A DNA stretch of 64,000 nucleotides from Eledone cirrhosa (lineage: Eukaryota). Shown here piece by piece: positions 1 to 63,031 of this stretch (the first letter of the stretch is position 1; every line of letters starts with the position of its first letter). A program made the translations under genes and the position numbers. The DNA lies in NCBI GenBank assembly GCA_964016885.1, contig OZ024743.1, forward strand, positions 59,892,001 to 59,956,000, given 5' to 3'. The notes under the pieces are model-generated. The model was given only the letters and a program-made list of their open reading frames with translations, made no database searches and had not been told where the DNA came from.

Positions 1-1158
1 CCGCTTGGATCAGGAGCTCCAACCCAGATCCGGACCAGTTCCCCTGCTTTTCTTTTGGTATTTCGATTAGTTTGGTGTTGGCATCGATGCCGGCGAGGAC
101 GGCAGCCATTAGCCAGTGAATTTCGATGGCCGATGGAACGTGGGTGACCCTGATCTTTACGAGTCTCTGGTCACAATAGCTTGGGACGACTGTCACGTCA
201 TCGCTTATTAGTGGGGCCATGGAGTGCTCTCTGGCCTCCTGTGGTGTTCCAAAGAACACGTCCACGGTTCCATATTTCTGTCCACGTTCGATGTTGGATT
301 TTTTTGCCCACACATGACCAAAAGCTTTTTTGGATTTGGGACTTGGATGCCCGTTCCACTCGGCGCGATTTTATGTTAATCGTCCGATAAAACACGGTGC
401 ATAGGCGCCTATGCTCTATTTTATTATGTGGCGCCGGGGTGGGGGTGGGGGTGACCTTGTACCCATCTTTCTTTTCCATTCTCTTAGCTTCATCTAATTC
501 CTCCTGAGTTTCCCAGATTGTTTCGCATATTTTGGCTCCTTTGGCAACAAGGTGTTCTTATCCGCATTGTTGTTGTTGCTGTTGTTGTTATTGTTATTTT
601 TGTTATTGTTATTTTTAGTTTCAGTTGCGGTGGTAGTGGCGTCAGTGGTGTTCGGTGTGGCTGTGTCGATTTTGGGTGAATCCATTTCGATGTCACAAGA
701 TATTAATTTTTTTTTTCTTATGTTTCTGTTATCGCTGTGGTGATGGCGGGGGTGGCGGCTTCAACACCTGCAGTCATTGGTAATTGCGGGAAATAAATGT
801 CTGCATGAGACAAATTTAAATTATTGCTACTGCTTATATTTTTAGTGTTGGCAAACGTAGTAATATTTACAATGGTGGTGTTGGTGTGAGGTGTTAGTTT
901 GTGAGGAAGGCTCTCAGCTACTTGGTGTAGCTGTGAGTCGTCCATGATTTGTTCAAAGAAATGTTTTGTTTGATAATTATAAAAGTTTAAATTTTGGGCT
1001 CAAAGCCCCAATATTTTTGAGTGTCCTTTTCAGAAATCAATGTATGTGCACCTAGAAACAATTAACAACAAAATTCTTCCATAAATGGTAATTTTAAACA
1101 AATGAAAACATCAAACCTTTGCTGAGTTCACGATGATACGATTTCCTAGATAGGTCGG
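1..1158 (-). mobile_element. Tx1-clade non-LTR retrotransposon copy B (5' leader and frameshifted ORF1; continues left of the window)
   Basis: Colinear with 5952-7116. ORF pieces 718..945, 494..685 and 198..479 match the ORF1 N-terminus (ESLPHK.TPHT, HRRLCTV.YRTIN.KSRRVERAS) in different frames. The 5' end abuts (AAT)n at 1159. Confidence 0.9.
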
Positions 1159-1159
1159 C

Positions 1160-1200
<41 letters not shown>
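1159..1200. repeat. (AAT)14 tract separating the two Tx1 copies (tail/target site)
   Basis: Perfect AAT repeat between the 3' end of copy A and the 5' end of copy B. Confidence 0.95.
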
Positions 1201-1202
<2 letters not shown>

Positions 1203-1467
1203 TTTTCTTTATTAACCACAAGGGTTCACATAAAGTAGACATTAAGGACAGTACAGGACAATACAGGAGGGTACAAATGGGCATTTCTGCGTGTAAAAGA
1301 ACAGAGGTTGAAATAAAATGACAAAGAAAAAAAAAAAAAAAAAAAAAAAAAAAATTCCCCAATAGGGGGGAGACTTCCAAGGGACATTTGTGGAGAAAGC
1401 CCATTAAAAGACCACAGTGGCCCTGACCACCAGGGCAAGTGCCCTCTCCCAGTTTTCCACCTTTAAT

Positions 1468-4400
1468 TTACAGACACATACTCAGAGAAGGCCCATTCAT
1501 TCGGGCCATACTTGCTTCTCTCACCCATCTTTCAACAAAATGCTGGGAAGAGAGCACTTCCCTCTCTACCCTGATTTTCCTTTTCAAATGAAATTTGAAA
1601 AAGTTAATCAGGGCATCACCGAAGAGGTAAGTGCTCGTCTTCAGCCCTTTCAAACGTGTGCACCATACTATCTCTTTCGCCATGGCCACCAGACAGATAA
1701 AAACTGCCTGCCCTTCCAGGCTAAAGGAAGGGGGCGGGGCAATCCTCACGATGGACTCAGCTGATAGCCGGATCCGTCCTACACGTGACAGCAGGTGTTC
1801 GACATAAACCCACAAGTCAGCAATGCTCGGACACTGGACGAGTGCGTGCAGGACGGTTTCGTCGCCCTGCGCGCATCTCGGACAAGCCCGGCTGACGGCA
1901 CCTCCATGCCTGTAGAGTTTATCCCGAACTGGCAAAGCTCCTCGGTAGCACTGCCAGGCCAGGGATTTCTGGAAGTTGTCCATAGGCCCCGGCCCGAAAG
2001 TCCTTCCGAAGAGATTGGCTAGTTGATTTTCGTCGACGCCTAGAGTTTCTCCAAGTACGTCGTCGCTCTTCCTCTCCACTAATCCCCTATAGAACGCCAA
2101 GGTGGAGTTTCCACCGATCACATTGCCCGATTGGTCGAGGGCTGTGAGCGCCTGAAGACATTCCAGTCTCCAAGCGCTCCCTCTCGGTCTTCGCTTGACC
2201 CAGGACTGCAGCTCCGTCAAGGAGACGAGCTGGGGAAAAACGTGTCTTGCAAACGGCGACCACACCTGATCACCGTCGAGGAAGAGGTGGAGATATCGTA
2301 GCCTGAGCGCGGGTCTGCGCATCATCAGCCACGGCATGCCCAGCCCTCCACGTAGCGGGTGTTGACAGCAGATGGACCGCCTGACCATCGGAGCGCGTCC
2401 CTTCCACAAGAAGCGAAAGAGCAAACGCTCCAGCGCAGTCAGGCGGGGCTTAGGACAAGGTACGACGGTCAGGCGGTAGTAGATGACGGATGCGATGTAC
2501 GCATTCGCCACCTCCGCTCGACCTTTCAGGGATAGCTTCCTCTCGGCCCATTTCTGGGTGAGAGAAGCCACCCTGCTCGTCACCTCGTCCCAGTTTTTGT
2601 CTGTCTGGAGGTCTGGACCGAACCAGACCCCTAGCAATTTAACCGGTCCGTCCGTCCAGCGCCCGACGACGCTGTTGGACGGCATGGACCTGCCTCTCCA
2701 GGTGCCGAGCTGCAGACCCACTGACTTTTCCTGGTTGATCATTGCTCCTGTCACCGCTTCGTATTCTCTTAGTGTAGTGCCGATCGCCTCGATATGTTTG
2801 GCGTTCGACACCACTACGGTGACATCGTCGGTATATGCTGACACGGATCTTCCGCATCCTAGTTCGCGCGGGACCCCCCTCAACGTCTCCAGTTTGTGCA
2901 GTAATGGCTCGAGAGTCAATACGTACAATAGGGACGAGAGGGGACATCCTTGGCGGACCGAGCGCATGATGTTGAACGGTTCCGAAAGGTGACCGTTCAC
3001 TCTCACTACAGAGCAGATGTCGCTGTGCATGGCAGCGATCCAGCCTCTGAAGACGGGCGCAAAGCCAGCCGCCCTCAGGACTGCCGCTAGGTAACGATGG
3101 TCGACCCTATCGAAGGCTTTCGACTGATCTAAATTGATCAAAGACCCACCCGTGCCAGGTTCCCTAGCTACCCTCTCTACGATGTATCGCATGAGGTGGA
3201 GGTTGTCGTGGATAGATCTGTCGGGAATGGCGCATGTCTGTGCCTCTCCCACCAGACCACCAACGACAAGCGCCAACCTCTTTGCTAGCACCTTGGCCAA
3301 AATCTTGAACTCTGTGTTTAGCAGAGTTATGGGCCTAAAATTATCTATGTTATCCCCCTTGTTCGGATCCTTTCTCAGCAGCGCCACCGCTCCTCGGCTC
3401 ACAGAGCTGGGAATTCTCCCGTTCTGTTGCCAGTTGCAGTAGACGTCCGCCAAGAGGCCTCCGAACAAGTTTGGCATTTGTACGTAAAGTTCATAGGGCA
3501 GACCATCCAAACCAGGCGATTTACCCCTTGTGCAACTAGTCATTGCATCCCGTACTTCAGCGGTTGTTATCGGCTTTTCGCAACACTCCGCCTCAGTGGC
3601 CGAAAGCCGCGGCAGTCCGTCGAGGTAGACACTAAAGTCCATCCCTCGATCCGGCCCGCCACTGCCCCCGAACAGTTGAGCGAAGTGTCGCTGAAAAGCT
3701 TCACACATTTGCCCGGGATCGAGTAGCATGCGCCCGTCGTGGTCCACCAAAGACCGGATCGTGGCTTTGTTGCCACGACGCGCCTCCGCCACTCGGGCCC
3801 ATTGAACGGCTTTCGTCCCCTCGTGTCTGAGAGCACGCACCCTAGCTCTGACAACGCAGCCTTCGTGCTTTGCATTGAAGAATTGGTCAAGGGCCAATTT
3901 CGCCGCAAGTACGTCGGTCGCGATGCCTTTGCTAAGCGCCTCATCTAATTTTCTAACTAATTCTCCCTCTGCTCTATTTTTCTCTATTGCTAAAGTCTTA
4001 CTAAACCTAATGGACTCTATTCTAATTGCTCTTTTCAGAGCAAACCACCACTTGTTGTTGACAATGGCCCCCGTCAACGCCCGCTTAACTAGTTCGCTAA
4101 TCCGGTCTCTGTAGGCCTTGCGCGCTGGTAAGGACGCGTTTAGCTTCCAGTAGCCGGGTCCTCGTCTATGAAGCCTATCTAAGTCAAGCACACAGATCAC
4201 GAATTTGTGGTCCGTGTAGCTGACTATCTTGAATTGTGGACAGCCTATGCTAGACCTATCTATTTCCCTACAAAATACTCTATCTAGATATGATCTGGAT
4301 GACCCTATGCGATTTGTCCAAGTCCACATTGGTACATTCGGGAAATCCATTCGGTACCTGTCAGACAGTTCAAAACGTCTGAGCAGGTTGGTGAGACTCT

Positions 4401-4887
4401 TGCACCCTCCTTCCCTATCCACTAATCCCACACAATCCCAGCGTGCATCTAAGATCCCGTTCCAGTCGCCCACTAACACTAAAGAGCGGGACGTTCCAAG
4501 AAAGGTCTCCAGACGCCGGAAGAAATCAGGTCGCCCTGCTCCTGTCGGGGAATAGACGGCCACTAACCTGAAAGCTTGCCCGTCTCCGCTGGTCACGTCC
4601 AGCACCACCAACTTACCTTCTGGGTCCAGGAAGATGGCCCGTATGGCAAGATCCAAACCTCTCCGAAAAAGCACAGCAACTCCTCCCCCCGATCCCGGAC
4701 GGCTGGGAGATGCGTACACATCGTAGCCGCCGAAGATCGGTGCGAAAGCCTGTGCTTCGGAGATTCTGGTCTCGCTGATGGCCACTACATCTATGTTTAG
4801 TGACCTGAGGTCGTTGAGCAGGTGGCCCTGCTTCCATGACGACCCCAAGCCACGCGCATTTATGCTGCCTATTCTGAGTGAGGTCAT
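1468..4887 (-). CDS. Tx1/L1-type ORF2: APE endonuclease, reverse transcriptase and C-terminal zinc finger (1139 aa)
   Basis: APE motifs SINARG, ISET, AVYSP, VGDWN, YLDRVF, TDHK. GPGYWKLN linker typical of L1/Tx1. RT motifs KSPGLDG, FRPITLLN, DQSKAFD, RQGCPLS, YTDD. C-terminal CPRC...ETVLHALVQC. Confidence 0.95.
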   Translation of the reverse strand: MTSLRIGSINARGLGSSWKQGHLLNDLRSLNIDVVAISETRISEAQAFAPIFGGYDVYASPSRPGSGGGVAVLFRRGLDLAIRAIFLDPEGKLVVLDVTSGDGQAFRLVAVYSPTGAGRPDFFRRLETFLGTSRSLVLVGDWNGILDARWDCVGLVDREGGCKSLTNLLRRFELSDRYRMDFPNVPMWTWTNRIGSSRSYLDRVFCREIDRSSIGCPQFKIVSYTDHKFVICVLDLDRLHRRGPGYWKLNASLPARKAYRDRISELVKRALTGAIVNNKWWFALKRAIRIESIRFSKTLAIEKNRAEGELVRKLDEALSKGIATDVLAAKLALDQFFNAKHEGCVVRARVRALRHEGTKAVQWARVAEARRGNKATIRSLVDHDGRMLLDPGQMCEAFQRHFAQLFGGSGGPDRGMDFSVYLDGLPRLSATEAECCEKPITTAEVRDAMTSCTRGKSPGLDGLPYELYVQMPNLFGGLLADVYCNWQQNGRIPSSVSRGAVALLRKDPNKGDNIDNFRPITLLNTEFKILAKVLAKRLALVVGGLVGEAQTCAIPDRSIHDNLHLMRYIVERVAREPGTGGSLINLDQSKAFDRVDHRYLAAVLRAAGFAPVFRGWIAAMHSDICSVVRVNGHLSEPFNIMRSVRQGCPLSSLLYVLTLEPLLHKLETLRGVPRELGCGRSVSAYTDDVTVVVSNAKHIEAIGTTLREYEAVTGAMINQEKSVGLQLGTWRGRSMPSNSVVGRWTDGPVKLLGVWFGPDLQTDKNWDEVTSRVASLTQKWAERKLSLKGRAEVANAYIASVIYYRLTVVPCPKPRLTALERLLFRFLWKGRAPMVRRSICCQHPLRGGLGMPWLMMRRPALRLRYLHLFLDGDQVWSPFARHVFPQLVSLTELQSWVKRRPRGSAWRLECLQALTALDQSGNVIGGNSTLAFYRGLVERKSDDVLGETLGVDENQLANLFGRTFGPGPMDNFQKSLAWQCYRGALPVRDKLYRHGGAVSRACPRCAQGDETVLHALVQCPSIADLWVYVEHLLSRVGRIRLSAESIVRIAPPPSFSLEGQAVFICLVAMAKEIVWCTRLKGLKTSTYLFGDALINFFKFHLKRKIRVEREVLSSQHFVERWVREASMARMNGPSLSMCL

Positions 4888-4921
4888 GTTGAAAAGGAGT
4901 GGAAAAGATGGGAAAGACCAC

Positions 4922-6907
4922 TTACCTTACTTCTCGTAGGGGAAGGACGGCTTTTCCATCCTTTTCACTGCTTGTGGCCTCCTCAGGAAGGATGTCCTTA
5001 TAAATCCTCCTGGAGAGTGCTTGTCGGAAGTCTCCGATGTCTTTGGGGAATTTTTGTTTTAGTGTCATGTACGTTTTCTGTGTGATGCAAGTGATTTGTA
5101 TGTGTGGAGGTGGTGTGAATTTTGGGGTTGTTGTGTAGTCTTTTTCTGTGATGCTGGTGTTGTGTTGGATGTAGTGTAATAATTGCTTGTTGTTCAAATT
5201 TAATGCTGTGTAGTGTGTATCGTTTTGGTTGTTTTGTTTTGTTTGCGTTTTTTGTGGGTTTGTTTCTGTTTCGAATTTTGGAGACTTTTGTGGTGTAGGT
5301 GATGGTGGTGATGGAGTTAATGATGGTGATGGTGTTGGTGTTTGGGTTGATGGGGTTGGTGATGCTGGTGTGGATGGTGGCATATCTGTCCTAACTTTTT
5401 TGTTTCTTAGTTTATTTGTTTCCCTCTGTATTTTGTTTTTGGAGGGGGAAGGAAGAGAATTTTTTCTTTTTTGGTTTCTTCTTTTTTTTCCGGATATCGT
5501 TTCCCACTCCTCGTCGTCACAATCTGTCTCCAGTTGTGATAGGCCGGGGAGTGGAAAATCCTCCACAGCCGTTAGTTTTGGTTGTGGTGTGGTGGATGGT
5601 GTAGGCGCTGGTGCTAGTTCTGAAGCGTTGGGTGGTGGTGGTGTTGGTTTTGCTGGTGGTGGTAGTGGTGTTGGTTTTGCTACTGTTGCTGGGGTTGTTG
5701 CTGTTATAGTTGCTTCTGTTGTTGCTGCTACAGTTGTTGCTGGCATCTCTGCTACTGGTGGTGTTGATGGTTGTGTCACTGGGGTGGGTAGGAGAGGTGG
5801 CCTCAACCTTTTAGTCTGAGGGCAGAAATCCCTTAGGTGGGTTCCTTCACCACAAACGACACACCTAGGTCTTCTGCCCTCGACAATTACCGTGAGGTGG
5901 CTGCCGTCAGTGAGGTCTATTACCTCTGGGATCTCCTCAATGCTTTTTTGGTCCGCTTGGATCAGGAGCTCCATCCCAGATCCGGACCAGTTTTCCTGCT
6001 TTTCTTTTGCTATTGTTATTATTTTCGTGTTGGCCTCGATGCCGGCGATGACAGCCGCTATTAGCCAGGGAATTTCGATGGCCGGTGGAACGTGGGTCAC
6101 CCTGATCTTTACGAGTCTCTGGCCACAATAGCTTGGGACGAGTGTGAAGTCGTCACTTTTTAATGGGGCCATTGAGTGTTCTCTAGCCTCCTCTGGTGTT
6201 TCAAAGAACACATCCACGGTTCCATACTTTTGCCCACGTCTGATGTGGGTTTTTCTTGCCCACACATGTCCCAAAGCTTTTTGGATTTGGGACTCGGATG
6301 CCCGTTCCACTCGGCGCGATTTTACATTTATTGTTCTATACGACACGGTGCACAGGCGCCGATGCTCCATTTTATTAGGTGGGGGGGTGAGGCTGACCCT
6401 GTACCCATCTTTCTTTACCATTTGTTTGGCATTTTCTAAATCTTCTTGAGTTACCGTGAACGCTTCGAATTGTTTTGCTACGATGGCGAAACTGAGGGTC
6501 GGTTTTATAATGTCATTGTTGTTGTTGTTGCTATCGTTAATATTAATTTTATTTTCAGTTGTGGTGGTGGTGACGTCAGTCGTCTTTGGTGGGGAAGAGT
6601 CCATTTTGCTTGATTTCATTTCGACGTCACGAGTTAATTTATTTTTTTCTTCTTTTGTTTCTGTTGTCGCGGTGGTGGTGGTGGTGGTGGTTGTCGCGGT
6701 GGTGGTGGTGGTGGAGGGTTTAACACCTGCAGTCATTGGTAATGGCGGGAAATGAATGTCTGCCTGAGTAAAATTTAAAATATTGCTACTGCTTATATTT
6801 TTTTTTGTGTTGGCAAACGTGGTAACATTTACAATGGTGGTGTCGGTGTGAGGTGTTATTTTGTGAGGAAGGCTTTCAGCTGCTTCGTGCAGAGGGGAAT
6901 TAGCCAT
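4922..6907 (-). CDS. Tx1-type ORF1 (nucleic-acid-binding/gag-like, 661 aa)
   Basis: CX2CX4HX4C knuckle (CVVCGEGTHLRDFC), Pro/Thr-rich linker, and basic W-x4-KKRR motif. Ends 34 nt upstream of the ORF2 start. Confidence 0.9.
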   Translation of the reverse strand: MANSPLHEAAESLPHKITPHTDTTIVNVTTFANTKKNISSSNILNFTQADIHFPPLPMTAGVKPSTTTTTATTTTTTTTATTETKEEKNKLTRDVEMKSSKMDSSPPKTTDVTTTTTENKININDSNNNNNDIIKPTLSFAIVAKQFEAFTVTQEDLENAKQMVKKDGYRVSLTPPPNKMEHRRLCTVSYRTINVKSRRVERASESQIQKALGHVWARKTHIRRGQKYGTVDVFFETPEEAREHSMAPLKSDDFTLVPSYCGQRLVKIRVTHVPPAIEIPWLIAAVIAGIEANTKIITIAKEKQENWSGSGMELLIQADQKSIEEIPEVIDLTDGSHLTVIVEGRRPRCVVCGEGTHLRDFCPQTKRLRPPLLPTPVTQPSTPPVAEMPATTVAATTEATITATTPATVAKPTPLPPPAKPTPPPPNASELAPAPTPSTTPQPKLTAVEDFPLPGLSQLETDCDDEEWETISGKKRRNQKRKNSLPSPSKNKIQRETNKLRNKKVRTDMPPSTPASPTPSTQTPTPSPSLTPSPPSPTPQKSPKFETETNPQKTQTKQNNQNDTHYTALNLNNKQLLHYIQHNTSITEKDYTTTPKFTPPPHIQITCITQKTYMTLKQKFPKDIGDFRQALSRRIYKDILPEEATSSEKDGKAVLPLREVR

Positions 6908-7116
6908 TTTTTTTCAAAGAAATTTTTGGATAATAATAAAAGTTAAAATTTTGGGCACAAGGCCCCAGTCTTTTTGGGTGTCCTTTTCGGAAAACAATGT
7001 ATGTGTGCTTATAAACAGTTTACAATAAAATTTTCCATAAATGGCAATTTTTAAACAAACGGAAATAACAAACCTTTGCGGAGCTCACGATAATACGATT
7101 TCCTACGTAGGTCGCC

Positions 7117-7161
<45 letters not shown>
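7117..7161. repeat. (AAT)15 tract shared by the 5' ends of the Tx1 and R4/Dong elements
   Basis: Perfect AAT repeat between two divergently oriented elements. Confidence 0.95.
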
Positions 7162-10100
7162 CAAACACTACATTACAAAGAAACTTATGCTTATTCATTT
7201 TTGGGGTTTTTTCTGCCTGTTTGTTTGTTTGTGTTCGTCTACAGCGTGATAATGCCGCACAAAAGTCACGTGGAGTGACGAAACTACCGGAGACAAGTAA
7301 TTCACCGGTGGTTATGTAACCATACATTCGCCAATCCTCGATAAGAGTGTTTAAATGTCGAACCTAAGCAGTTCGAATAACGGTGAAATGGAGACTAGAA
7401 TGTCATGTGACAGACTCTCACCCAACAGGTGCTCCCTGGCTCAGCAGCAGGGACCTGGCTGTCAACCAAATACTGCTGGTGTCGGAGGAAGAAGAAGAAG
7501 GAAAGGGACCAGAACCAACTAGACGAAAGAATTGAATAGAACTGTTATGCAATGTTACCTGAAGAGTAACCCCAAGAAGAAAGGCTATAGGAAAAGGATG
7601 CATAACATCTGGAACGAGATTGGTCCATTTAAATTAGATGAACAAAAACTGGCCGGGCAGGCTCGGGTAATAAGAACTAATGGGTGGATAAGCGAGCTGG
7701 AACTGGAGGAACTGAGCAGAGAGATTAGCTTGGAGATGGAGGGTGGAGTATGCCAGGCAAACGAGCCAGTGGGAAATGAAGGTGAAGAGGTCGAGAGAAC
7801 GGAGGAACCACCCGAAACAGACAATGATCTGAATGCTGAGATAAATAATACCTGGAACAGAGATACGGCCACTGAGGAGATGAATGCTGACGGGCTAGGA
7901 CAAGATTTGGTAGATATCCTAAACTTAGTGGTAGATGAATTGAACAATGATAGTGGGAGACCTATTAACCTAAGATTTGTAGACAGGAACAAGTTAAAAG
8001 AAACAACAGCTAAGGTAAACAAAGTCATCCCATACCTTGAGGCGAGCAGCCTTCACCAGTGCAACAATATCCTCAAAGCAACAGCAAATACGGTGAGGAA
8101 ACTACTTGGTATAAAAGCGAGAGGAAACAACAGACAAGAAAGAGCAGAGCATTGGTGGAAGAAACGACTGAGTGGTCAAATCAGGGAAATGAGAAATGAC
8201 ATTGGAAAGCTTGAGTCCCTACTGAATGGGACACTAAACAACATAGACACTAAAAATAGACTGGAAATAAAGTACAAAACTAGGAGGAAAAAGCTAAATA
8301 TTATCATAGAGGAACTGAAGCAATGCATTGTAGCAAAGAGTGCAAAAATCAGGCGAAACGAGAACAGAGTCAGTCAGTATAGACAGAATCGTATGTTCGA
8401 CAACAGCCAGAAGATGCTGTTTGAACAGCTTGAAGGGAAAATAAGAGGCAACGACTTGATCCCTGAGGTGGAACAAACTAAAACATTCTGGAGAGGAATA
8501 TGGGAGCAGGATGTTAAACATAATGACCAGGCAGTGTGGATTGAGACAGTACAGAAGGAGATCAGTGAACAGGCACGCCAACAAACTGATTTGAGTATCA
8601 CAGTTGAAACTCTTAAGGGGCAGGCCAAAAAACTAACCAACTGGAAATCACCTAGCCCAGATGGTGTGCAGGGGTATTGGATTAAAAACATAACATCCCT
8701 CCACCCGAAACTGACAACCATGTTCAATGACTGCTTGATGGCAGGTGAGGTACCAGAGTGGTTGACAAAAGGTACCACAGTTCTGATAATGAAAGACCGA
8801 ATCAAGGGTAATGATGTTACCAACTATAGACCTATCACATGTTTGTCCGTAATGTGGAAACTGTTGACAAGCATTATGTCTGAGGAAATCTACCATCACC
8901 TCCACACAAACAACTTGTTACCGGACGAACAGAAAGGATGCCGAAAGAAGTCACGTGGTACAAAGGACAAGTTACTTATTGATAAGATGGTAATGAGGAA
9001 TTGCAAGAGGAGACACACTGGTCATGCCATGGGATGGATAGACTACAAAAAGGCATTTGACATGGTGCCTCATTCTTGGATCACCAACAGCCTGGAGATC
9101 TTCAAGGTGGCAGATAACATCAGGCAGTTGTTGGGCAAAAGTATGAAGTCCTGGGAAACAGAGTTAACATCAACTGGAGAATCCTTGGGAAGCGTGAAGA
9201 TCAAGAGTGGTATCTTCCAGGGAGATTGTCTGTCCCCTCTGTTGTTTGTCCTTGCCCTGATGCACTGACCAGTGTACTGCGAAAAGTGAGAGCAGGATAC
9301 AGGTTGGGAAAGGGAGGCCTTACCATCAATCACCTCCTCTTCATGGACGATCTTAAGCTCTTCGGGAAGAGTGAGAAGGAGTTGGATTTGCTTGTTGACA
9401 ATGTCCGTATTTTCAGCAATGATATATGTATGCAATTTGGTATTAGTAAGTGTGGAGTCATTGAGATAAGGAGGGGTAAGTTGAGCAGAAATAACGGAAT
9501 CCAGATACCAACAGGTGAGATGATTAAAGAAATTGACTCTGAAGAAGGATACAAGTATTTGGGCATTCTGGAGGCTGATGACATCAAGAACCAAAAAAAT
9601 GAAGGAATTGATAAGAACTGAATACTTTCGGAGAGTAAGGAGCGTATTAAAGTCACATCTGAACAGTAGGAATGCCATAGTGCAGTAAATTCCCGAGCTG
9701 TGTCTATTATTAGGTACAGTGCGGGAATTCTGAGATGGTATGTTGCTGAACAAAAAGAAATGGATAGGAAGACTAGGAAGCTATTGACTATCTACAACAT
9801 GTTCCACAAGAGGCATGATGTCGATAGACGCTACTTAAGGAGATCTGAAGGTGGAAGAGGTCTTATCAGCATAGAGGACTGTGTTCAGAGTGAGAAAAAT
9901 AACCTACACAAATACGTGACTGATAGTAAGGAGCCAATGCTCAGAACTGTACTGAAGGAGGGGACAATAGGCCAGGGGATGTCCAAGGAGGAAATAACAT
10001 CAAGGTGAAAGAGCAGCCTTCAGGAAAAATCCCTTCGTAGTACCTTCTTTGAGAAAACTGAACTTAGAGATCCACAGACATGGAACTGGTTGAAAAGAGG

Positions 10101-10684
10101 AGACCTTAAAGACGCTGGAGACATGATGTGATGGGCAGGGTGATCAACTGGCACCTATGCAAAGTAAACAATTTACCACATTCTGAGAAATGGTATGAGC
10201 ATAAGCTAGAGGCGGTGATAGAAAACGATCAGGTGAAGGTGCTGTGGGATTTTAGGATACATACGGACAAGAAACTGGAACACAATAGACCTGACCTGGT
10301 GGTTGTGGACAAAGAAAAAAGAACGTGCCTGATTGTGGATGTGGCCTGCCCATTCCACACGAGAGTGCAAGAGAAGGAGAGGGAGAAAATTAACCGATAC
10401 CAGGACTTAAAGAGGGAGGTAAAAAGGATTTGGAACTGCCATGAAGTCAAAGTGATCCCGATTGTCATAGGCGCACTAGGGACTATCTCAAAAAGTTTCC
10501 AGGGATGGTTAAAGAAAATTGGCCCCTTCACGCTTTTTGGAACGCTTCAAAAGGCATGCTTGCTGGGAACAGCAAAACCCTCCGATACGTACTAAATATC
10601 TGAGGCTGCAGGTAGTGGCTTGATATTCATTTCAACAAACTTTCCAGTTAACTAACATCAATGACTGAGACTCAAAGAGTAATA
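7162..10684 (+). mobile_element. R4/Dong-clade non-LTR retrotransposon, near full-length, decayed
   Basis: Single-ORF layout with an R4-type N-terminus (VMQCY, WWKKRL), RT, and a C-terminal PD..D/E restriction-like endonuclease. Ends in ...GAGTAATA. Confidence 0.85.
7355..10595 (+). pseudogene. R4/Dong RT-RLE polyprotein, disrupted
   Basis: ATG at 7355 is in frame with ORF 7532..9268 across a TAG at 7520. RT motifs WKSPSPDG, YRPITCL, DYKKAFD, GIFQGD, and LFMDD after a frameshift near 9265. Further breaks near 9600, 9686 and 10006. RLE motif NRPDLVVVD...IVDVACP...EKINRY. Confidence 0.88.
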
Positions 10685-11257
10685 CTTGAACACTTCTCTA
10701 TCCAAGATTTTTAATCTCTGTCTAAATGAAAAATTTACCATTATATCTAATTTAGATTCTATAATAAATAGACGCACTGACTTGTTTTCTATCTGCTTGC
10801 ATAAATTCCACAAAACATTCCACAAAGTATACAGCTAATATCCAAATCTTTATCAATTTAGAATCTTTTTCTGAAAGGCACATATATATATATACACTTC
10901 TTTAAAAATATATCCATCTTTCTTCCTTATTTCAAAGGTTTTATTATACATTATACAATACTTGTTACTCATTCTATATCGCTCCTATTTATCACTTCCC
11001 TTTCTTCTCTTTTTCTTTTAATGTCTAACCCCTAATCTGTACCTTTTCTCACTGTTGTCTGACATAGAATCAATTATTACATAATACAATACATTCTTAC
11101 TCTATATCACCTTGTAAAAATCCTTCGTAAACATAAACATTTTTTTTACTTTAGAATATTCATCCTCAATTCATTATTCTTTTCTCCCTTTCATCTAACT
11201 CATTCATGCTCATCTCACGATATATCCTTACTTAAATTATCTGTTGTTCTTTTTAAC

Positions 11258-11421
11258 AATACATATCAACATTTTCTTTCCATCGCACATATTATTAAAC
11301 CCTTAAATATCATTCTTAATACATATTAACTTTTTCTTTCGATCGCACATATTATTAAACCCTTAAATATTATTCTTAATACATATTAACATTTTCTTTT
11401 CATCGCACATATTATTAAACC
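11258..11421. repeat. 60-bp tandem repeat, ~2.7 copies
   Basis: AATACATAT.AAC.TTTTCTTT..ATCGCACATATTATTAAACC recurs at 60-nt spacing. Confidence 0.9.
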
Positions 11422-11896
11422 ACTCAATATACAAACCTTAACTTTACATTATTTTTCTCTTCGTTAATTTTCAAATTCTTTTAATTCATACATTATCTTC
11501 CAACGGTTTTCAACCTCTCTATGTAAAACAATGTATCTTTCTCAGTTATAAAAGCTATCTCTCTCTCTCTCTATCACCCATCTCTCCTCCTATCTCATCC
11601 TTCCTCATTATACTCCTCCCTCTCCACTTTTTACTCTCATCTCCTCCTCTTTTTTCATCCCCCCCCCCCAACCCCCCTCAAAATAAAATATGTTTCCCAA
11701 TATCACACATCAATCTAAAACTATTTCTCATATGTTGATTTAAAGCTGCACTATCCACAAGTGTTTTTTTAACCTTTATATCATGTTTTCCTGTTTTATG
11801 TGATGAAAACACAAATATTGCATGATGATATTTGTTTTTGAAATGTGCATAATAAAATACATGGAACTCTTTTAACCATCTTTTGTTCTTATATAT

Positions 11897-11967
<71 letters not shown>

Positions 11968-12008
11968 CGTGCGAAGCTATTTTGCTGGTTTGAGAGCCTG
12001 ATGAGTCA

Positions 12009-12039
<31 letters not shown>

Positions 12040-12516
12040 GTAAACTTATGTTAAGCATTGCCTTTTATCCTGTCCTCCTCCTCTTTCAAAGTTTTCTATA
12101 TTTTATCAGCCTGTTACCCCCCCCCCCCCCCACACTTATGCAATGTCTCTCTGTTGACCACTCGCCACTGGTCTCTATCGTCTGACGCATTTACTCCATC
12201 ACTGTCTTTTGGCAGCATTTAACTGTTTTCACGGTTGTTCAAGCGATATATTTTATCATATATCTATCTTTCTCCACCCGCCTCCACCTCTACTCACCCC
12301 GCACCCTTCCACCACCTGTTTACCCCCCTTTTAATTTCAGTTTATTTTGATCATGCCTTTATTTTTAAATGTTCTCATTCCTTGTATTTTGATCATGCTT
12401 TATTTTTATTTATTATTTATTATATTTTTGTCTTTATTTGTTAATTTTTCATTCGCACCGTTTCCTTTCGCTATATGTCTCTCCACCACTCCCCTACACA
12501 CCTTTTGAACTCTTAC

Positions 12517-12547
12517 CTGAAGAAGGGCTTATGCCCGAAACGTCGTC
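12517..12547 (+). ncRNA. Minimal hammerhead ribozyme motif (PLE type)
   Basis: CTGAAGA-A-GGGC/TTAT/GCCC-GAAA-CGTC-GTC-like core. Stem I is not evident. Confidence 0.6.
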
Positions 12548-12632
12548 CTCCACCTACCCCCCACTCTCCTGAGCGTGAATCTAATAAACATTTGTCGTAC
12601 TGCCTCTCTGTTCTGTCCCTGTTCAATTTTTT

Positions 12633-12685
<53 letters not shown>

Positions 12686-12741
12686 ATATTATAATGAAAT
12701 AACAGGTGGCTGGATTTGTGTAAATCCTTGAAAGGTTTATT

Positions 12742-12799
12742 ATACTATGATCATTTCAATGACCGGGTTCCGTATGAATCCGGTGATATCATCAGGTAT
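12742..12799 (-). ncRNA. Type I hammerhead ribozyme motif
   Basis: ATAC-CTGATGA-long stem II (ACCGG.TTC/GAA.CCGGT)-GAAA-TGATCA-TA-GTAT. Stem I is ATAC/GTAT and stem III is palindromic. Confidence 0.75.
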
Positions 12800-12931
12800 T
12801 CGAAATATAATAAGTGAATGTAATAGATAAAATCCATGGGGCTGAAAATCAAAGACCCGAGGGCCAGTGCCATCCAGCATCTTCTACCTTTGCCGGTCGC
12901 CCACAAATGACGTGGCTAAAGCTTACAGTGT

Positions 12932-13420
12932 GCTACTACCGGTCAAATAAAGGAAAATAGAAAGGGATAGGAACCTAAGTTAGCGTTAATATCATGCCAC
13001 AAGAAAAAGGAAAGAAAGAAAGAAAGAAGAGAGAAGAAGGGGGAAGGAATAAGAAGAGAAGCCAGGATTAATGTCAGCTATAAGAAGAAAGACAGAAAGA
13101 AAGACGAGAAAAGATCGGTTTTACAGTCAGGCCAGGAATGTCGCGAAAACATTTTTTTTATTCTAAGGGACCCGTATCTTAACTACTACTACCGGTCAAA
13201 TATAGGCAAACAAAAAGGGGAAGGAAGATAAGTCAGCGGGAGGAAGACAGAAAGAATGGAGAAGATAAGGGAGAAAAGGAAGAAGAAGAAAAGTCAGGGT
13301 TGATGGCTACAAGAAGAAAGATAGAAAGAAAGAGGAAGAAAGGTCGATATTAATGACAGACTACAGTCAGGCCAGGAATGGAGCGAATAAAATGTTCAAA
13401 GGGGCCCGTATCTTAGCAGA
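12932..13420. repeat. Diverged ~255-bp tandem duplication in a PLE-like 3' region
   Basis: CTACTACCGGTCAAATA...CAGTCAGGCCAGGAATG...CCCGTATCTTA occurs twice. Confidence 0.75.
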
Positions 13421-14354
13421 GGTAAATATAGTAGGGGTCAGTGTGTTATAATGTGTGAGCAGGAGATTGGAACATTACATTTTTGTTTAGACTTGTAGGA
13501 TGAAGTTAAAAAATTTATATTTAATATTAACATTATAAAATTAAAGAAATTAGAAAATTTAAAGTTAAAGAGTTTAACATTTTTACGGTTGCGAGGTTTA
13601 AGCAAAGAAAGAGTCTATTATGAAGATACTTAAATTTCATTATAGAGTAAAGATTATGTCTTTGTTTAGCCGTCAAACAGCATGCGGCGACTACAAGCTC
13701 GGGCAGCCCATCACTCCGAGTGATATCGCCTAGCGAAAGATATGGAAATCGATTTTTCCGAGCACTCTAGGAATGTATAACAGGCTTCAGTTGCGCCAGC
13801 AGGAAGTCAGTCCGCATCGTTAGGCCATTCTTGTAAAAAACCAGTAATATTCCTTTATCCACGGAGGCGTGATATATCTAATAGTTCGGATTTGATCTGT
13901 AATTTAAAGGTGCTATATGGCGGTTAAAAAACCGGCTGCGCGCCGGGCCCCTGGGACGAATCAAGCCACTCCGAGCAGTTTCATTACCGAAAGAAGGTGA
14001 AATTTATATTTCCAAGCACTCAAGGTAGGCCTATGCGCCAGGGGGGCTGCTCCCGCCGCCAGGAAAACCAACCCAACAGTCCGACAGAAAGTTGGAACGT
14101 TAAAATATTGTTTAAATTTATAGGATGAAGTTGAAAGAATTCAGAATAACATTATAAAGTTAAAGAGTAAGAAGATTGAGAATTGAACAAACAGAAAATT
14201 GAAAATTAAACATTTAAACATTTTTTTTTAAGGTTTTGGGTTGGGGGGTTTAGTTAAAGAGAGTTTTTTATGAAGAAACGTTAATTGTATTATGTAGATC
14301 TACTATAAGTTATCCTAGTGGGATGTAGAGTAAGGGATATAGTCGGCTAATATT

Positions 14355-14803
14355 TATTTTGTTCTCAGGGGGAGACATTCTAGTGTCGTGTGCTAATGGG
14401 TACAAGTGAGCAAAAGTTCCAATAAGAGGAGTAGAAATACATGGATACATAGAAGTGGAATACGTGGAAAAGCACATTAATAAAGCAAAGGTATAAATAT
14501 ATAAATATATAAATAAACCAACAAGAGTGGTGGTGGAGAAAGATGGAAAAAATCAAGACATAGGAGGAACACAATATAGTTCAGGTTGCAGTATTTATGT
14601 TCCCAGGGGGAGACATTCCAGTGAGTAAAAGTCCGAATAAGAGAAGTAAAAGGTACATGGCTGTATAGAAGTAGAATACGTGGAAAAAGCATTAATACAG
14701 CAAAGGTATAAAGATATAAAGATATAAATAAACAAACAAGAGTGGTGGTGGAGTAAATAGAGAGATCAAGACACAGGAGAAATACAATATAGTTCAAGTT
14801 GCA
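14355..14803. repeat. Diverged ~220-240-bp tandem duplication
   Basis: CAGGGGGAGACATTC...AATACGTGGAAAA...ACAAGAGTGGTGGTGGAG...ACAATATAGTTCA occurs twice. Confidence 0.75.
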
Positions 14804-15593
14804 GTCAAATAATGCATATAGATGTGGAAATGGAATCAGTGTGTGTTCGAGTCTGAGAATTCAGTGTGAGTTATACATGCCCTGAAGTATAGGGTAGCGA
14901 ATTTAGTCAATACAGTGCAGTACAATACATGTTAAGGTATAATCCGTAGAATTTGGTCGAAGTCTAAATATTCTGAGAGGGAAGTAGCAATGGGCCAGAT
15001 GGCCGGTAGGCAAAAACACTTGCTTAAACCATTTTGTTTGTTTACCCTAGCGTCCCTCTTATTTACGTGTCCCAACGACTTTTTTTAGCCGTTGCTCGCA
15101 CCAACCTGAGATATATGGCCTTTAATGCGACGAAATGCCTACGACGGTTGGAAGGCCACTGATGAGAACAAACTTTTTCATATGTAACCCATTTGCAGCG
15201 CCGTAGCTCCATTATTATCATATATATATATATATGATAATAAATAAAGACGGTAATATGTATATATCCTGTTTATTATGTTATAAATAGAGGATGTATA
15301 CATATTACCGTCTCTATTCTTTTTTATAATATTGTCACTCTTGTCTGATACCTTCTAATGAATACTCCAAGCTGCACACGTCGGGGAGTGATTAACACTG
15401 TTTACACTAACATAGATCTACTACATGACCAAACACTTGGAATAATATATTTATATATACCTACACGCATATCACATATTTACACATTCTTATATACATT
15501 CATATTAATGTGTAGGTGTGTGTATCCTTTCCTTTGAGAAGTACTTCGAACTTAGTGTATCTTACGGCAATTAGTATGTCCTTAGGACTGTTG

Positions 15594-15870
15594 GGAGGCG
15601 CGTTGCCTTGTAGTAATGGTGTTGAACTTAAGATCATAATGTCGTTGGTTCGAATCCTGGGCTGGGCTGCGTGTTGTGTTCTTGAGCAAAACACTCCATA
15701 TTACCTTGCTACTGTATACTCAGCTGTAAATGAGTACCGGCAATGGCTCGGGTCTAAAGATGTGCTGGACTGATGTCCAGGGGTGAGTCTTGTACTCTCA
15801 GTCACTTCATGTCATGAAACCAGGATAAGCACCGGCCTAACGAACCTTCATGCTTAAGACAGCTTCAGAT
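15594..15870 (+). mobile_element. tRNA-derived SINE (second family)
   Basis: tRNA-like head with B-box GGTTCGAATCC, followed by TTGTGTTCTTGAGCAAAACACT and CTCAGCTGTAAATGAGTACC, which resemble CORE/V-type central domains. Confidence 0.6.
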
Positions 15871-16236
15871 TAGATCATGAATGTCGGGACATATTTCCAA
15901 AACTTACCATTTGGTTTACTACATGTAAATCTGCTTCTTTCAAACTTCAGCTCTCGCCTATTTAGTTTAATTATTCAGTTTAATTTAGGTAAATCCAGAC
16001 CCTTTCATCTACAATTTTCAAGCCCTTATATCAGCTATGTTCGAAGCCGAATTTGACCGGTGCTAATTCGGGGTAGACCTCGGGGAGTAGACATTACATT
16101 CCTACGTCAAGCATACTAACCATTAGGTCATGCGTCTTCTCTATAAAATACTTGTTTAAATTTGATAATTTAGTCCTTTCGCTTTAAATAGTTAGTTACA
16201 CATATACACTCATATTTACGCCCCACCCTGTCTCTA

Positions 16237-17475
16237 TGGATCATCCAGCGATTTTGGGTGCAGTTACATCCAATCTTGCTAAACCTCTAGCCACAATATT
16301 CAACCTATCATTTGCTACCGGAGTTATTCCTGCCGACTCGAATGTAGCTACAATTTGCCCTATCTTTAAATAAGGCGACAGAGAAGACCCGGGGAACGAC
16401 AGACCCGTGAGCCTCACCTCAATTGTCTGTAAGGACTTGGAATCTCTAATCAAGCGGGAAATGATGGCTCATCTTGCGTCTTTTACTGCCATCTCACCAT
16501 CTCAGCACGGTTTCATCCCGAAACGTTCCTGTATCACAAACCTACTCGTCATAGAAGAATGGGTGACGAGGATAGTGGACGATGGAGATGCGGCCGATAT
16601 TATCTTTCTCGACTTCGCCAAAGCCTTTAACTCTGTCAACCACCGCCTGCTCCTGTATAAGCTCAGCAACTACGGTCTCCATGACTCGATTATAAAGTGG
16701 ATTGGATCATTTCTTGAGGGTCGTACTTGCAGACTTCGGATCAATGGCAGTCTGTCATCGGGGGTGGGTGTAGGCAGTGGCGTTCCCCAGGGCTCTGTTT
16801 TGGGCCCAATTCTCTTCCTTCTATACATCAACGACATGCCGGGCGTGATTGGTGGAAACGTGCTCCTATTTGCAGATGATGTGAAAATGGTAGCCCGAAG
16901 GCTACCATTTGCCAAACTCACTCCAGAAATGTTCAGACCTCTCTATGTCGCCCTCGTGAGACCGCACCTAGAATATGACATCCAAGCATCAAACCCATAT
17001 CTCATCCGGGATATCCATCACTTGGAGAGATTCAACGACTAGCGACTCGGATGGTACTTCATGAGCTGCCCTACGAAAGCCGGCTGCAGAAGTTGAACCT
17101 CTTATTCTTAAAGCGTCGACGGCTAAGAGGTGATCTCATTTTGGCTTACAATCTCTTCAATGGCCATTACGATCTCCCTCAATATCTCCTATTCGCTCCG
17201 GCACTTGAGAGGGGTCTACGTGGATATGACAAAAAGCTATTTCACCGCCGCTTTCGCATAAACAGATGGAAAGCTGCTTTCTCGATCCGCATCTCTGGAT
17301 CCTGGAATCGGTTTCCAGAAGAGGAGTCAGCGCGCCAACCCCGCAACAATTCAAGGCGAAATTGGACCGGTGTTGGAACACTGTGTTTCCGACTGTGTAA
17401 ATGTTGCCCCTCTCCCCTCCTTACATAGCATCTGAAGCATCTATGTTTTCTGCCAAATATATTGTATTGAATTGA
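16237..17475 (+). mobile_element. CR1-clade LINE, 5'-truncated with an internal deletion
   Basis: RPVSLTSIVCK, QHGF, DFAKAF, SGVPQGSVLGP, FADD, LVRPHLEY, RRRLRGDLI. Contains in-frame stops and an (ATTGA)-type tail. Confidence 0.88.
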
Positions 17476-17946
17476 AAAAATCTAACTGATCTATATGTAC
17501 TTCGTCACAAGTAGTTCGGCTTAAATATCGCAATTATTTTTATTTATTTTCTCATTGCCCTCTAATTTCATTCTGTTTTGTTTTGATTACGTTATCGTTC
17601 ATATCTACGCTCTGTACTATGTTTTCGTCTCGGTTGTCGTCTTTCAAAATACTCTAGGTCATTAGAAAATGATCAAAATCTGAAACGCAATTATAGGCGA
17701 CGGAGAGAGTCATGTTAACTTTTTAAATATCTTAATACACTCTCGTCACCTATTCGTACGTCGATTACGTATATCATCGTTTTATTGGATCGTTTGCCTT
17801 TTCGAAGATTATCGTCCTACCCCCTCATTTTCTCTCCCTATCCTACATGTGATACACATTTATATGTTTATATATATATCCATATATATATATATACATA
17901 TATTTACATATACACATATACATGTAATTATATATATATACACGCC

Positions 17947-17993
<47 letters not shown>

Positions 17994-18039
17994 TAAGGAA
18001 ACGATTTGTTTCACACTTTATAGGGGAAAGAGGAAATAA

Positions 18040-18520
18040 AGTTCGACGTGACCGGATTTATTCCTTCTTCAGGAGTATATAAATAGAGAGAGGTTCATAA
18101 AGGATTGATACATAAATTAGGAGGGCCGTATTCTTAGTCGTGCGGTTCAGTAACTTCTCTCGTTATTATAGTGTTAGTATTAGCAGAGGTATCGATGTTT
18201 ACAGGATTCAGAGATTATATGGGATCTAGTATAATTTCCGTGCTAGTTCTTCAAGTATGCACCTGTTCCAAATTATTTTTACGCATCAAGATGTTAAATG
18301 CGTCTCTTCTGATTTGTAAGTTCAGTGTAATGGAGTATGGTGATTTAAGTGTAAAACTGTTGAAGATTTGATGGTATCTGCGTGTGAGTGGGAAGTGTTT
18401 CTTTAAGATGGAGAAGAATTTTGACGGTATATGACCTCTGGTCACGGCGTTATATGGGGCGTTATACCAATAAATATGTCTTTTGTGATTTATGTTTTTA
18501 CCGTGAGATATAGGGTATGT
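18040..18520 (-). mobile_element. Penelope-like fragment (RT-endonuclease linker plus degenerate terminus)
   Basis: IYWYNAPYN...FFSILKKHFP...QIFN matches the FFNPPFN...FFSLLDKNFP linker of the PLE at 61 kb. A CTGAAGA remnant lies near 18073. Confidence 0.65.
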
Positions 18521-18664
18521 TGTTTGGATCTTGTCATTTTCTTGATTAGTGTTGATGTGACTTTTAGTATTTAAAATTTTGTTTTTTCTTTATTGGGGGG
18601 GGGGGGGGGTTATTACGGCTGTTGTTGCGCCTAATAGCTACAAGTTTATTATTTGTTGTCTTGG

Positions 18665-18872
18665 CGCTGGATTAACAGAATCGATAGAGCGTTGGACAAC
18701 ATACTTAGCTCCATAGAGTTATGGACCTTTACGTACTGAGTTCAAAACCCGCCGAAGCTAGCTTTGTCTTTTATCCTTACAGGGTCGAGAATGTAATGCA
18801 CTGGGGTCCACTTAATTGACTTTCCTTTTGCCCAAAAATTGTTGGCTTTGCGCCTAAATCAGAAACCCTTAT
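18665..18872 (+). mobile_element. tRNA-derived SINE, Meta-like domain family (diverged)
   Basis: CTGAGTTCAAA B-box; TTTGTCTTTTATCCTTACAGGGTCGA core; GGCTTTGCGCCTAAA tail. Confidence 0.7.
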
Positions 18873-19450
18873 TTGTTGTTCTCTTATTGTTTGTGGGTGT
18901 GTTTGTTCTAGAATGTACGGAGTTTTCGGGTGTATAGACTGCTGTGTAATTCGTGTTGTTCGTTAATTTAGAGTTGTTAAATTCCTTATTATGCGGTTGT
19001 TTCATGTAGAGGCATTAATTTTGTGAAGTGTTGTTCTAGAAATAGTGTAGATTCTACATACGGTATTACTTTTATAATCGAGATTGTGTCTGATACTATA
19101 TATGTATATAGTAAATTCTACATCAACTTCTAGGTTTAAACGACGAGCAATCAGTTAATCATTTGAACCTAGAGCTCGTAAAATTAATATAATATATAAG
19201 CTGGTAATTATCCTACAGTGACGCTTAAAGTAGTTTTTAGTTCGATTGTATAACTCAATAGGACCAGACAGCTCTTTTGAGTTCCCGGTAATTTCCATTT
19301 AATTGGTTTCCTTACAGTTTCTCACTACTTAAATTGATTTAAAATGCTGGGTTGATTAGAGGCCATAGTAAAACCTATCTGCTCAAGAAGCCAATCGAAA
19401 TTTTGAAACAATCTGAAACCCTCTGTGTTTGCATCTCTCTCTCTCTCTCT

Positions 19451-19500
<50 letters not shown>

Positions 19501-19548
19501 CAATGATATTAAATAAATGGAAACTATATTTATAAAACCATATTTATT

Positions 19549-19601
19549 CTATTATATATATTTCAAGGGTACCAAAACTTTGGTACGCTTTCATCAGATA
19601 A
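19549..19601 (-). ncRNA. Type I hammerhead ribozyme motif
   Basis: CTGATGA-AAG.GTACCAAA/TTTGGTAC.CTT-GAAA-TATATA-TA, followed by AATAAA and (TA)n. Confidence 0.7.
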
Positions 19602-19679
19602 AATAAAAAGTTTACTTCATAAATTTTAACATAACCAAGAAAAGGATAGCCTAACGGTTCAAGTTTTTCTTGAAAACTT

Positions 19680-19750
<71 letters not shown>

Positions 19751-20439
19751 GTGAGGGTGAAATTGAAGTTCTTCTAACTATATAAAAAAAGATCTATCAT
19801 TATTATTGGTTGTTTAGAAAATTCGAAAAAGAATCTCCAGAGCCCGGAAAGCACAGCAATGACACGGGAAGGAAATACGATAAAGGTGATGGTATATATG
19901 ATTAAGGCGAAGGAGAGCATTTATACACATATACACTCACTCACACATACACACACAATATATATATATGTATATCATGAGAGAGAGAGAGATATTTTGG
20001 GATATATAGAAATATATGTAAAATCATGTCCGCGAAGCCGAGCCGTTTTAGCTTGTGTTTAGCAAAATGCTCGATAAACGAGCAACCAAAACCGCTTGGC
20101 GCCCTAATCAGTATTTTACATATCTATATCCATTCTGCCTCTACCCATTCATTGTGTACTCCCATGATTAGTAGTCTCCCCAGTCTCAGCATCGCAGACC
20201 TTATATATATATGTGTGTGTACGTGTGCGTCTGTGCCAGTGAGTGCAATCCTGAGAGCATATGTTTTACCGATTACAGGGAACAATGTCACATTAGGGAT
20301 CATAAGCTTTCATTGTGGTTGGGTCTGTCAATCTGTAGCAAATACAACTTAAATTTCTACTAAAACAATGCATAACTGAACAAATTATTTAGCAGATTTC
20401 GGACCAGTTTTAATATTTGACTTAATATCTTTATAAAAG

Positions 20440-20637
20440 GGCGTTGGATTGGCAGTATCGGTAGAGGGTCGGTCGCCATGCTTTGCAGCATAGAGTTACA
20501 GCCCTTTACGGTCTGAGTTCAAATCGCGTCATGGTTAACTTTGCCTTTCATCCTCACGAGGTCGATAAAATAAAGTAACAGTAATGCACTGAAGTAATTA
20601 CTGGACTTGTGCCAAAAATAAAAGCAATTATTATTAT
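20440..20637 (+). mobile_element. tRNA-derived SINE, Meta-like domain family
   Basis: TGGCAGTATCGG A-box-like, GAGTTCAAATC B-box, TTTGCCTTTCATCC...GGTCGATAAAATAAAGTA core, and (ATT)n tail. Confidence 0.85.
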
Positions 20638-26035: not shown

Positions 26036-26099
<64 letters not shown>

Positions 26100-26100
<1 letters not shown>

Positions 26101-27508
26101 TAATTTAATATATCTACTAACATAAGCGCACAGATGTACGCTAATGCCAGCAAATACACAGGTTATGTCATAGTACCTAGGTGGTTCAATGCAGGAGGAT
26201 GCAGAACAATAATATAAAAGACGTAAAATAAGAAAATTTTAAAAAGAAATTTAAAAAAAATTAACTTACTTATATTTTCACTCCAACTAATTAGTTTCTG
26301 CAATGGGATAAAGACAGTTACGTAATGAACTGTTGAGTATTTCGTTGCGTCATCAGGGCGGTCATTCTCAGCCAAGTCTCCAGACAATGCGCGGACACTG
26401 GGGACTCATATAAAAATAATAATAATTCGGTAAATGGAACAGCTATCGAGGACTGGATTCCATGTACTGAAAATTCTCACTGCCACTGGTCATATGGCCG
26501 ATTCTAAAGAATCAATCACGTGACACAGAGGCTAGTCAGTAGAATGGGATGGTAAGATGACAGACGCCTACTAACACCCCCCAAAAAAATTTTTTAGAAG
26601 TGGTTTTGGCAGGTTTGCTCGACAAATCAGTGATTTGGAGATAAATATAGATAATTTAATATATCTACTAACATAAGCGCACAGATGTACGCTAATGCCA
26701 GCAAATACACAGGTTATGTCATAGTACCTAGGTGGTTCAATGCAGGAGGATGCAGAACAATAATATAAAAGACGTAAAATAAGAAAATTAAAAAAAAAAA
26801 TAAATAAAAAATTAACTTACTTAAATGTTCACTCCAACTAATTAGTTTCTGCAATGGGATAAAGACAGTTACGTAATGAACTGTTGAGAATTTCATTGCG
26901 TCATCGGGGAGGTCATTCTCAGCCAAGTCTCCAGGCAATGCGCGGACACTGGGGACTCATATAAAAATAATAATAATTCGGTAAATGGAACAGCTATCGA
27001 GGACTGGATTCCAGGTACTATGACATAACCTGTGTATTTGCTGGCATTAGCGTACATCTGTGCGCTTATGTTAGTATCTATATTTATCTCCAAATCACTG
27101 ATTTGTCGAGCAAACCTGCCAAAACCACTTCTAAAAAAATTTTTGTGGGGTGTTAGTAGGCGTCTGTCATCTTACCATCCCATTCCTACTGACTAGCCTC
27201 TGTGTTACGTGATTGATTCTTTAGAATCGGCCATATGACCAGTGGCAGTGAGAATTTTCAGTACCTGGAATCCAGTCCTCGATAGCTGTTCCATTTACCG
27301 AATTATTATTATTTTTATATGAGTCCCCAGTGTCCGCGCATTGCCTGGAGACTTGGCTGAGAATGACCTCCCTGATGACGCAATGAAATTCTCAACAGTT
27401 CATTACGTAACTGTCTTTATCCCATTGCAGAAACTAATTAGTTGGAGTGAAAATTTAAGGAAGCAAGTTAATTTTTTTTTATTTTTTTTTTTAGTTTCTT
27501 ATTTTACG

Positions 27509-27513
<5 letters not shown>
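26100..27513. repeat. 551-bp partial tandem repeat plus inverted copy
   Basis: 26100-26650 is repeated at 26651-27019. 27013-27513 is the reverse complement of ~26215-26730. Both ends are flanked by (TA)n. Confidence 0.9.
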
Positions 27514-27582
<69 letters not shown>

Positions 27583-58679: not shown

Positions 58680-58775
<96 letters not shown>

Positions 58776-61130: not shown

Positions 61131-61213
61131 GTGTCTGGTGTGTTGTTTCTTCCTAAGGTACTACGGTAGTTTCCGTGGTAATGGTTACTTCCGGTGGCAC
61201 GCTCCGCTTTGGT

Positions 61214-62731: not shown

Positions 62732-62983
62732 ATTGGTAATTTATTGTATGTCAGCTCAGCAATATGGAGAGTTAATAGTATTAATTATACTATTTATGGT
62801 TATGTAAATACAAAAACCTTTTGCAGTTATATATATTTTTATACAAACCCTAAATAGTGGTAGGCAGTAATATATTACTACCTTATTACCAGTAAGTTCA
62901 GTAGCTCAATGTAAACATATCAGATGATTTACAGAGCAGTTATATGAATTATAAGAATCAAAGAACTGTTCAAAACATTTTTA

Positions 62984-63031
62984 TGCTTACAACTGTTTCA
63001 TCCAAATCGAGGTTTGGATTTCTTCGGAGCA
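62984..63031 (-). ncRNA. Hammerhead-like motif in the PLE 5' repeat (CCGAAGA core); decayed copy at 58811-58857
   Basis: TGCT-CCGAAGA-A-ATCCAAA/TTTGGAT-GAAA-CAGTTG-TA-AGCA. Confidence 0.7.

Follow-up and report, generated by a model that had tools for sequence, protein, structure and literature searches.

Microsatellites are established targets of Tx1-type LINEs, and the families described include Kibi with (TC)n, Koshi with (TTC)n and crocodilian families with (TTCC)n or (TTTC)n as their sites (PMC4494074, PMC3812793). A family was regarded as microsatellite-specific when more than 20% of its genomic copies were flanked by the target (PMC4494074). Choice of target by the endonuclease has been reported for Tx1L, R1 and TRAS (PMC1919474). 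The repeat (TAA)n is the target of Dong elements (PMC3812793, PMC7998251), and R4-Dong elements are abundant in octopus (PMC13282606, PMC10294476).

The 64,000-base stretch of Eledone cirrhosa DNA analysed here (the window) was found to carry an element, copy A, that resembles Kibi, Koshi and the crocodilian families in being a two-ORF Tx1-type LINE with an APE endonuclease and an apparent microsatellite site in fixed orientation. It differs from them in the repeat unit, TTA, in its cephalopod host and in its nearest relatives in the tree, which are not microsatellite-flanked. With Dong, DongAg and DongBg of the R4 clade it shares the microsatellite (TAA)n/(TTA)n, and a Dong-type copy lies on the very run that adjoins copy A. 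However, Dong has one ORF, a restriction-like endonuclease and TAA on the sense strand, whereas the copy A family has two ORFs, an APE endonuclease and TTA on the sense strand. Xenopus Tx1L (YTX2_XENLA) is similar to copy A in ORF2 (29% identity over 919 columns, E 7e-90) and equal in domain order, but it targets the Tx1D transposon, its ORF2 is longer and its endonuclease hairpin has two more residues.

The copy A family is real and probably (TTA)n-targeting; its kind is already known, and the family itself has possibly been named. In a survey by Kojima, a (TTA)n-specific Tx1 family from octopus has reportedly been called 'HIBA', an attribution that may be wrong. No (TTA)n-specific Tx1 family, 'HIBA' included, was found in the literature searched, most subscription papers and Repbase being outside its scope. 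None is mentioned in passages of PMC8869645, PMC4640811 and PMC9115989, and the supplement of PMC13282606 gives 80 L1-Tx1 families as totals only.

Organization of the locus

The LINEs and the repeat runs at the start of the window are arranged as follows.

1-1159, minus strand: copy B, truncated at the edge of the window; a diverged second Tx1 subfamily, represented by its 5' UTR and the first half of ORF1
1160-1201, plus strand: pure (AAT)14, equal to (ATT)14 on the minus strand; adjoins the 3' end of copy A and the 5' end of copy B
1202-7116, minus strand: copy A, full-length Tx1-type LINE of 5,915 bases, both ORFs open
1202-1467, minus strand: 3' UTR of copy A, 266 nt, with an internal T tract
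1468-4887, minus strand: ORF2 of copy A, ATG at 4887, 1139 aa, open; APE endonuclease, reverse transcriptase and C-terminal CCHC
4922-6907, minus strand: ORF1 of copy A, ATG at 6907, about 661 aa, open
6908-7116, minus strand: 5' UTR of copy A, 209 nt, first base G
7117-7161, plus strand: pure (AAT)15; adjoins the 5' end of copy A and, as it appears, also that of the Dong-type element on the opposite strand
7162-10679, plus strand: Dong/R4-type LINE, degenerate and facing copy A head to head; presumed ends, no second copy in the window

On the sense strand of copies A and B the repeat reads (ATT)n. The Tx1 junctions lie at 1159/1160, 1201/1202 and 7116/7117, and all three visible ones, which stem from two Tx1 insertion events at one locus, are in pure ATT with identical strand and phase. 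ATT is present on both sides of copy A and on the sole visible side of copy B, its orientation being fixed, and the 5' ends of both copies fall in the same alignment column, with G as the first base immediately after ...ATT. The sequence-only reading had described pure (TTA)n in one orientation at three junctions, which is confirmed, but had placed two of them one base too low, at 1158/1159 and 1200/1201. Its term head-to-tail array fits in that two copies are visible and is otherwise generous, copy B being cut by the window edge with its 3' end unseen.

Both AAT runs of at least 24 bp in the 64-kb window adjoin the LINEs. In the 56,839 bases outside positions 1-7161 no AAT run of this length was found, and the other runs there comprise 27 AT, five AC, three AG and one AAG. 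Because that sequence holds 27 AT runs and no AAT run, the association with TTA does not simply follow from the repeats present locally, nor does it reflect a general taste for AT-rich repeats.

Repeats and fragments of other kinds occur elsewhere in the window. A unit of 260-520 bp is present three times at 26087-27518 (two direct, one inverted; 93-96% identity), each with an internal (AAT)4, and a dispersed 190-bp repeat of SINE- or MITE-like appearance extends over 18663-48142 (near 20440, 39114, 41459, 47162 and 47957, weaker at 18663). At 53194-53964 there is part of a PIF1 helicase (Helitron-like) and, apart from it, at 16374-17042 a fragment of an RT. An ORF of 508 aa on the minus strand (61214-62740) had no Pfam match and is presumably Penelope-like, judging by its motifs; within 58768-64000 it is flanked by an inverted repeat (58952-59828 and 63126-64000, 96%) and by a direct repeat (58768-58924 and 62941-63098, 95%).

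Assignment of copy A to the Tx1 clade

By its domains and by similarity copy A is a member of the Tx1 clade (L1 group), in agreement with the sequence-only reading. Pfam analysis of ORF2 disclosed Exo_endo_phos, RVT_1 and zf-RVT and gave no match to RNase H, and the residues of the APE motifs are present (N23, E52, Y125, D154/N156, D215 and D239/H240). In a phmmer search ORF2 scored 314 bits against Xenopus Tx1L versus 179 bits against human L1 ORF2. The nearest named proteins were two of Argonauta hians (68% and 57% identity) and those of a cuttlefish (44-46%), in keeping with an octopod as the likely host. No named Kibi or Koshi protein was among the matches listed in the ORF2 protein searches. 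A FastTree phylogeny was calculated from 83 RT-region rows (86 were offered, three were too short), a set that holds no named L1, Kibi or Koshi and gave a long-branch warning. Copy A and Argonauta form one branch with a support of 100, the octopod branch, whose sister group shows about 41% identity; the 21 rows of both hold together with a support of 100. Copy A was further placed inside a 77-row set together with Tx1L and the U1- and U2-flanked elements, with a support of 96 in this tree without a named L1.

ORF1 of copy A had no Pfam match above the cut-off, zinc knuckle included, though a knuckle CX2CX4HX4C can be seen in the sequence at residues 351-364; its C-terminal half is Pro/Thr-rich. 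Its homology extends to the ORF1 of the array-forming sister family (E 1e-15), which matches zf-CCHC. A weak match to MBD was below the cut-off and was rejected.

The element ends with AATAAA and six further bases, followed directly by (ATT)14 with no poly(A). At position 2832 copy A encodes YTDD where nearly all contigs and reads of the public runs have YADD, and because of such private changes the open frames are no proof of its activity.

Copy B and the independence of the insertions

Copy B is 80.8% identical to copy A over 1235 columns, and its ORF1 is broken by indels of 8, 1 and 1 bases. For the conserved ORF1 residues 175-320 (144 codons) dS between the copies is 0.30 and dN/dS is 0.31 (Fisher p 5e-5), and for all 302 comparable codons dN/dS is 0.53 (Fisher p 8e-4). 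As judged from these ratios, A and B are separate subfamilies that split while under selection, and copy B is probably the older insertion. The 19% divergence, with a dN/dS of 0.31 in conserved ORF1, upholds the earlier view of independent insertions as opposed to a segmental duplication.

The Dong/R4-type neighbour

The element at 7162-10679, which the sequence-only reading had overlooked, is one that we take from its motifs to belong to Dong/R4, and not to another clade with a restriction-like endonuclease, its relatives being unnamed. It has a single ORF, with an ATG at 7355, 193 bases from (AAT)15, and a stop near 10603, and RVT_1 is its sole Pfam domain, no APE being present. A C-terminal piece matches the R2 restriction-like endonuclease region (E 3e-4). 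The ORF is colinear with relatives of 1127-1172 aa at 48-66% identity, the alignment starting from residue ~50, and it is interrupted by frameshifts and a nonsense codon and carries a deletion ahead of the endonuclease. Position 7162 was assigned as the 5' end from the 193-base distance to the ATG. The presumed 3' end is followed by TAATA only (10680), and (AAT)15 is on the 5' side.

As copy A and the Dong-type element meet head to head at 7117-7161, this run is the 3' tail of neither. The case for the 5' run being a target, and not a tail, is thereby stronger.

A sister lineage in repeat-free arrays

A sister Tx1 lineage with 41-42% ORF2 identity was found in public sequence (G001, contigs C3-C19; loci L056-L092 and L095-L105), in a set labelled as a bacterial genome bin whose contigs look like animal host DNA. 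In one record 57 of the 86 ORF2 matches are near-full, and 56 have no stop. The arrays are pure and head to tail, with mostly intact copies of several subfamilies at a period of ~6.4-6.9 kb, and one unit passes into the next a few bases beyond AATAAA, with neither poly(A) nor a repeat tail. A run of (TTA)3 or longer was present in none of 39 sister loci, and none of the five array ends examined abuts a microsatellite, the ends lying in unrelated flanks. An RNA-gene target of these arrays is not indicated, since Rfam detected no RNA genes in nine array-flank stretches. In the one pair of adjoining units compared, identity was 99.6%, and the arrays may have been formed by recombination. Their formation, by self-targeting or by recombination, may be of more interest than the TTA finding itself.

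Probable insertion into a (TTA)n microsatellite

It seems probable that copy B, the Dong-type element and copy A all entered one pre-existing (TTA)n/(TAA)n microsatellite, and the APE endonuclease of the A/B family is predicted, as the likely case, to prefer (TTA)n/(TAA)n. Copy B and the Dong-type element, both broken, would have inserted first, on opposite strands of one run, and the still-open copy A later, between the 5' ends of B and Dong, so as to split the run into 14 + 15 units. The nick by the APE domain would fall on the strand that reads (AAT)n, a TpA step being its probable site. With AATAAA only six bases upstream of the junction, cleavage of the transcript would take place within the repeat beyond it, so that the RNA would end in a few AUU units; annealing of these to the nicked strand would start reverse transcription at that point, which would account for the missing poly(A). 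Any target-site duplication would be concealed within the repeat. Since (TTA)n would remain on both sides after each insertion, the site would still be usable and copies could stack head to tail. The 3' TTA of copy A is more likely host target than intrinsic tail, because the sister lineage has no repeat tail. By chance, 0.0001 to 0.07 such arrangements would be expected per genome if copy numbers of 1,000-20,000 per subfamily are assumed. The earlier proposal of an APE lineage specific for (TTA)n is supported as regards a (TTA)n target at this locus, and three junctions there do not extend it to the whole family. That the element regenerates its target through its tail was also put forward in that reading, and is hypothetical.

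Insertion at the boundary of copies of their own kind, which the sister lineage seems to practise, offers a different, rather unlikely, origin of the pattern. The (TTA)n would then be an RNA-borne 3' tail together with a 5' tag, the tag arising by read-through from the upstream copy, and the Dong-type element would have entered the tag of copy B. This self-targeting is kept alive by the sister clade, which stacks in long tandem arrays without TTA, and by two of the 37 junctions listed (L070 and L073), where a different, apparently 5'-truncated sequence directly follows the 3' end; copy A adjoins the 5' end of a relative. However, the sister has neither tail nor tag, and its arrays, with 99.6% identity in the pair compared as against 81% between A and B, are perhaps the product of recombination. 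The short TAATA after the Dong-type element would agree with entry into a tag close to its outer end, but a host microsatellite explains it equally.

Still less probable is that TTA is a tail and nothing else, with an endonuclease that, much as in L1, loosely favours TpA steps where DNA is rich in AT, and with 5' runs that owe their place to chance or to a local hotspot. Many LINEs have repeat tails, and the endonuclease hairpin of copy A is as long as that of human L1 and two residues shorter than that of Xenopus Tx1L. This hairpin (WTW-SYLD) has 8 residues in the five octopod-branch proteins compared and 10-12 in most sister proteins; it separates the two groups uncleanly, as one sister protein also has 8. 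A tail would leave the run at 7117-7161, which is 3' of neither neighbour, unexplained, and AT dinucleotide runs, though far commoner in the window, adjoin neither copy; the chance expectation, under the assumed copy numbers, is also low. A single insertion, later duplicated in tandem or segmentally and then decayed, would suit the identical 5' junction and the similar run lengths (14 and 15 units), but this is largely refuted already and can hardly be right, because the 19% divergence with dN/dS of 0.31 and 0.53 means that the lineages parted under selection, 80% of the sampled 31-letter words of copy A occur in public runs, pointing to other close copies, and no unique flank was found duplicated.

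Significance of (TTA)n as a probable target

Targeting of (TTA)n by copies A and B involves no new mechanism. If true, it adds TTA to the repeat units among Tx1 targets, and two unrelated endonuclease types converge on one microsatellite in opposite orientations. A further proposal, possible but on present evidence doubtful, is that specificity for (TTA)n arose in an octopod Tx1, sister to repeat-free arrays, without common origin with that of Kibi and Koshi; sharing one microsatellite with Dong on the opposite strand, it would be a so far undescribed case in which an APE and a restriction-like endonuclease converge on the same target. An abundant family of this kind would shape where LINEs pile up in octopods, and (TAA)n markers in these animals could often have flanks in common and suffer from null alleles. 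For the study of switches in APE specificity, a natural domain-swap pair is provided by the octopod branch together with the sister lineage that forms arrays.

Abundance and related elements in public sequence

Four public sequencing runs were aligned to positions 1178-7140, with the junction repeats at both ends outside the comparison. The copy A family is abundant in octopod-like runs, with matches in 61,840 contigs of one run and in 362,140 of the 12.5 million reads of a RAD run, and read depth on copy A declines toward the 5' end. Among the 24 loose ends listed of 7,518, none had a TTA flank, and most were diverged subfamily sequence. A large loose end at 3884 (run X17) coincides with an AATT site, 157 bases away from a GCATGC site, and was read as a RAD library chimera. 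One contig of run X2 reaches 32 letters past 7108 and is uninformative.

A scan of viral sequence gave no match to the copy A family, and a scan of metagenomes gave 55 loci, none close to the octopod branch. Rfam analysis of 12 loci returned two U1 matches only, both in one locus (L093), where a Tx1-type element at 3036-10137 has a complete U1 snRNA gene on one side and on the other a 5'-truncated U1, itself preceded by a short poly(A). A Tx1 insertion associated with U1 is suggested; this record, too, carries a bacterial-bin label. In another locus (L006) what we take to be a U1-like start is found near the 5' end, and in a third (L008) the 3' end has poly(A) followed by what is presumably U2 snRNA sequence, in a Keno-like manner.
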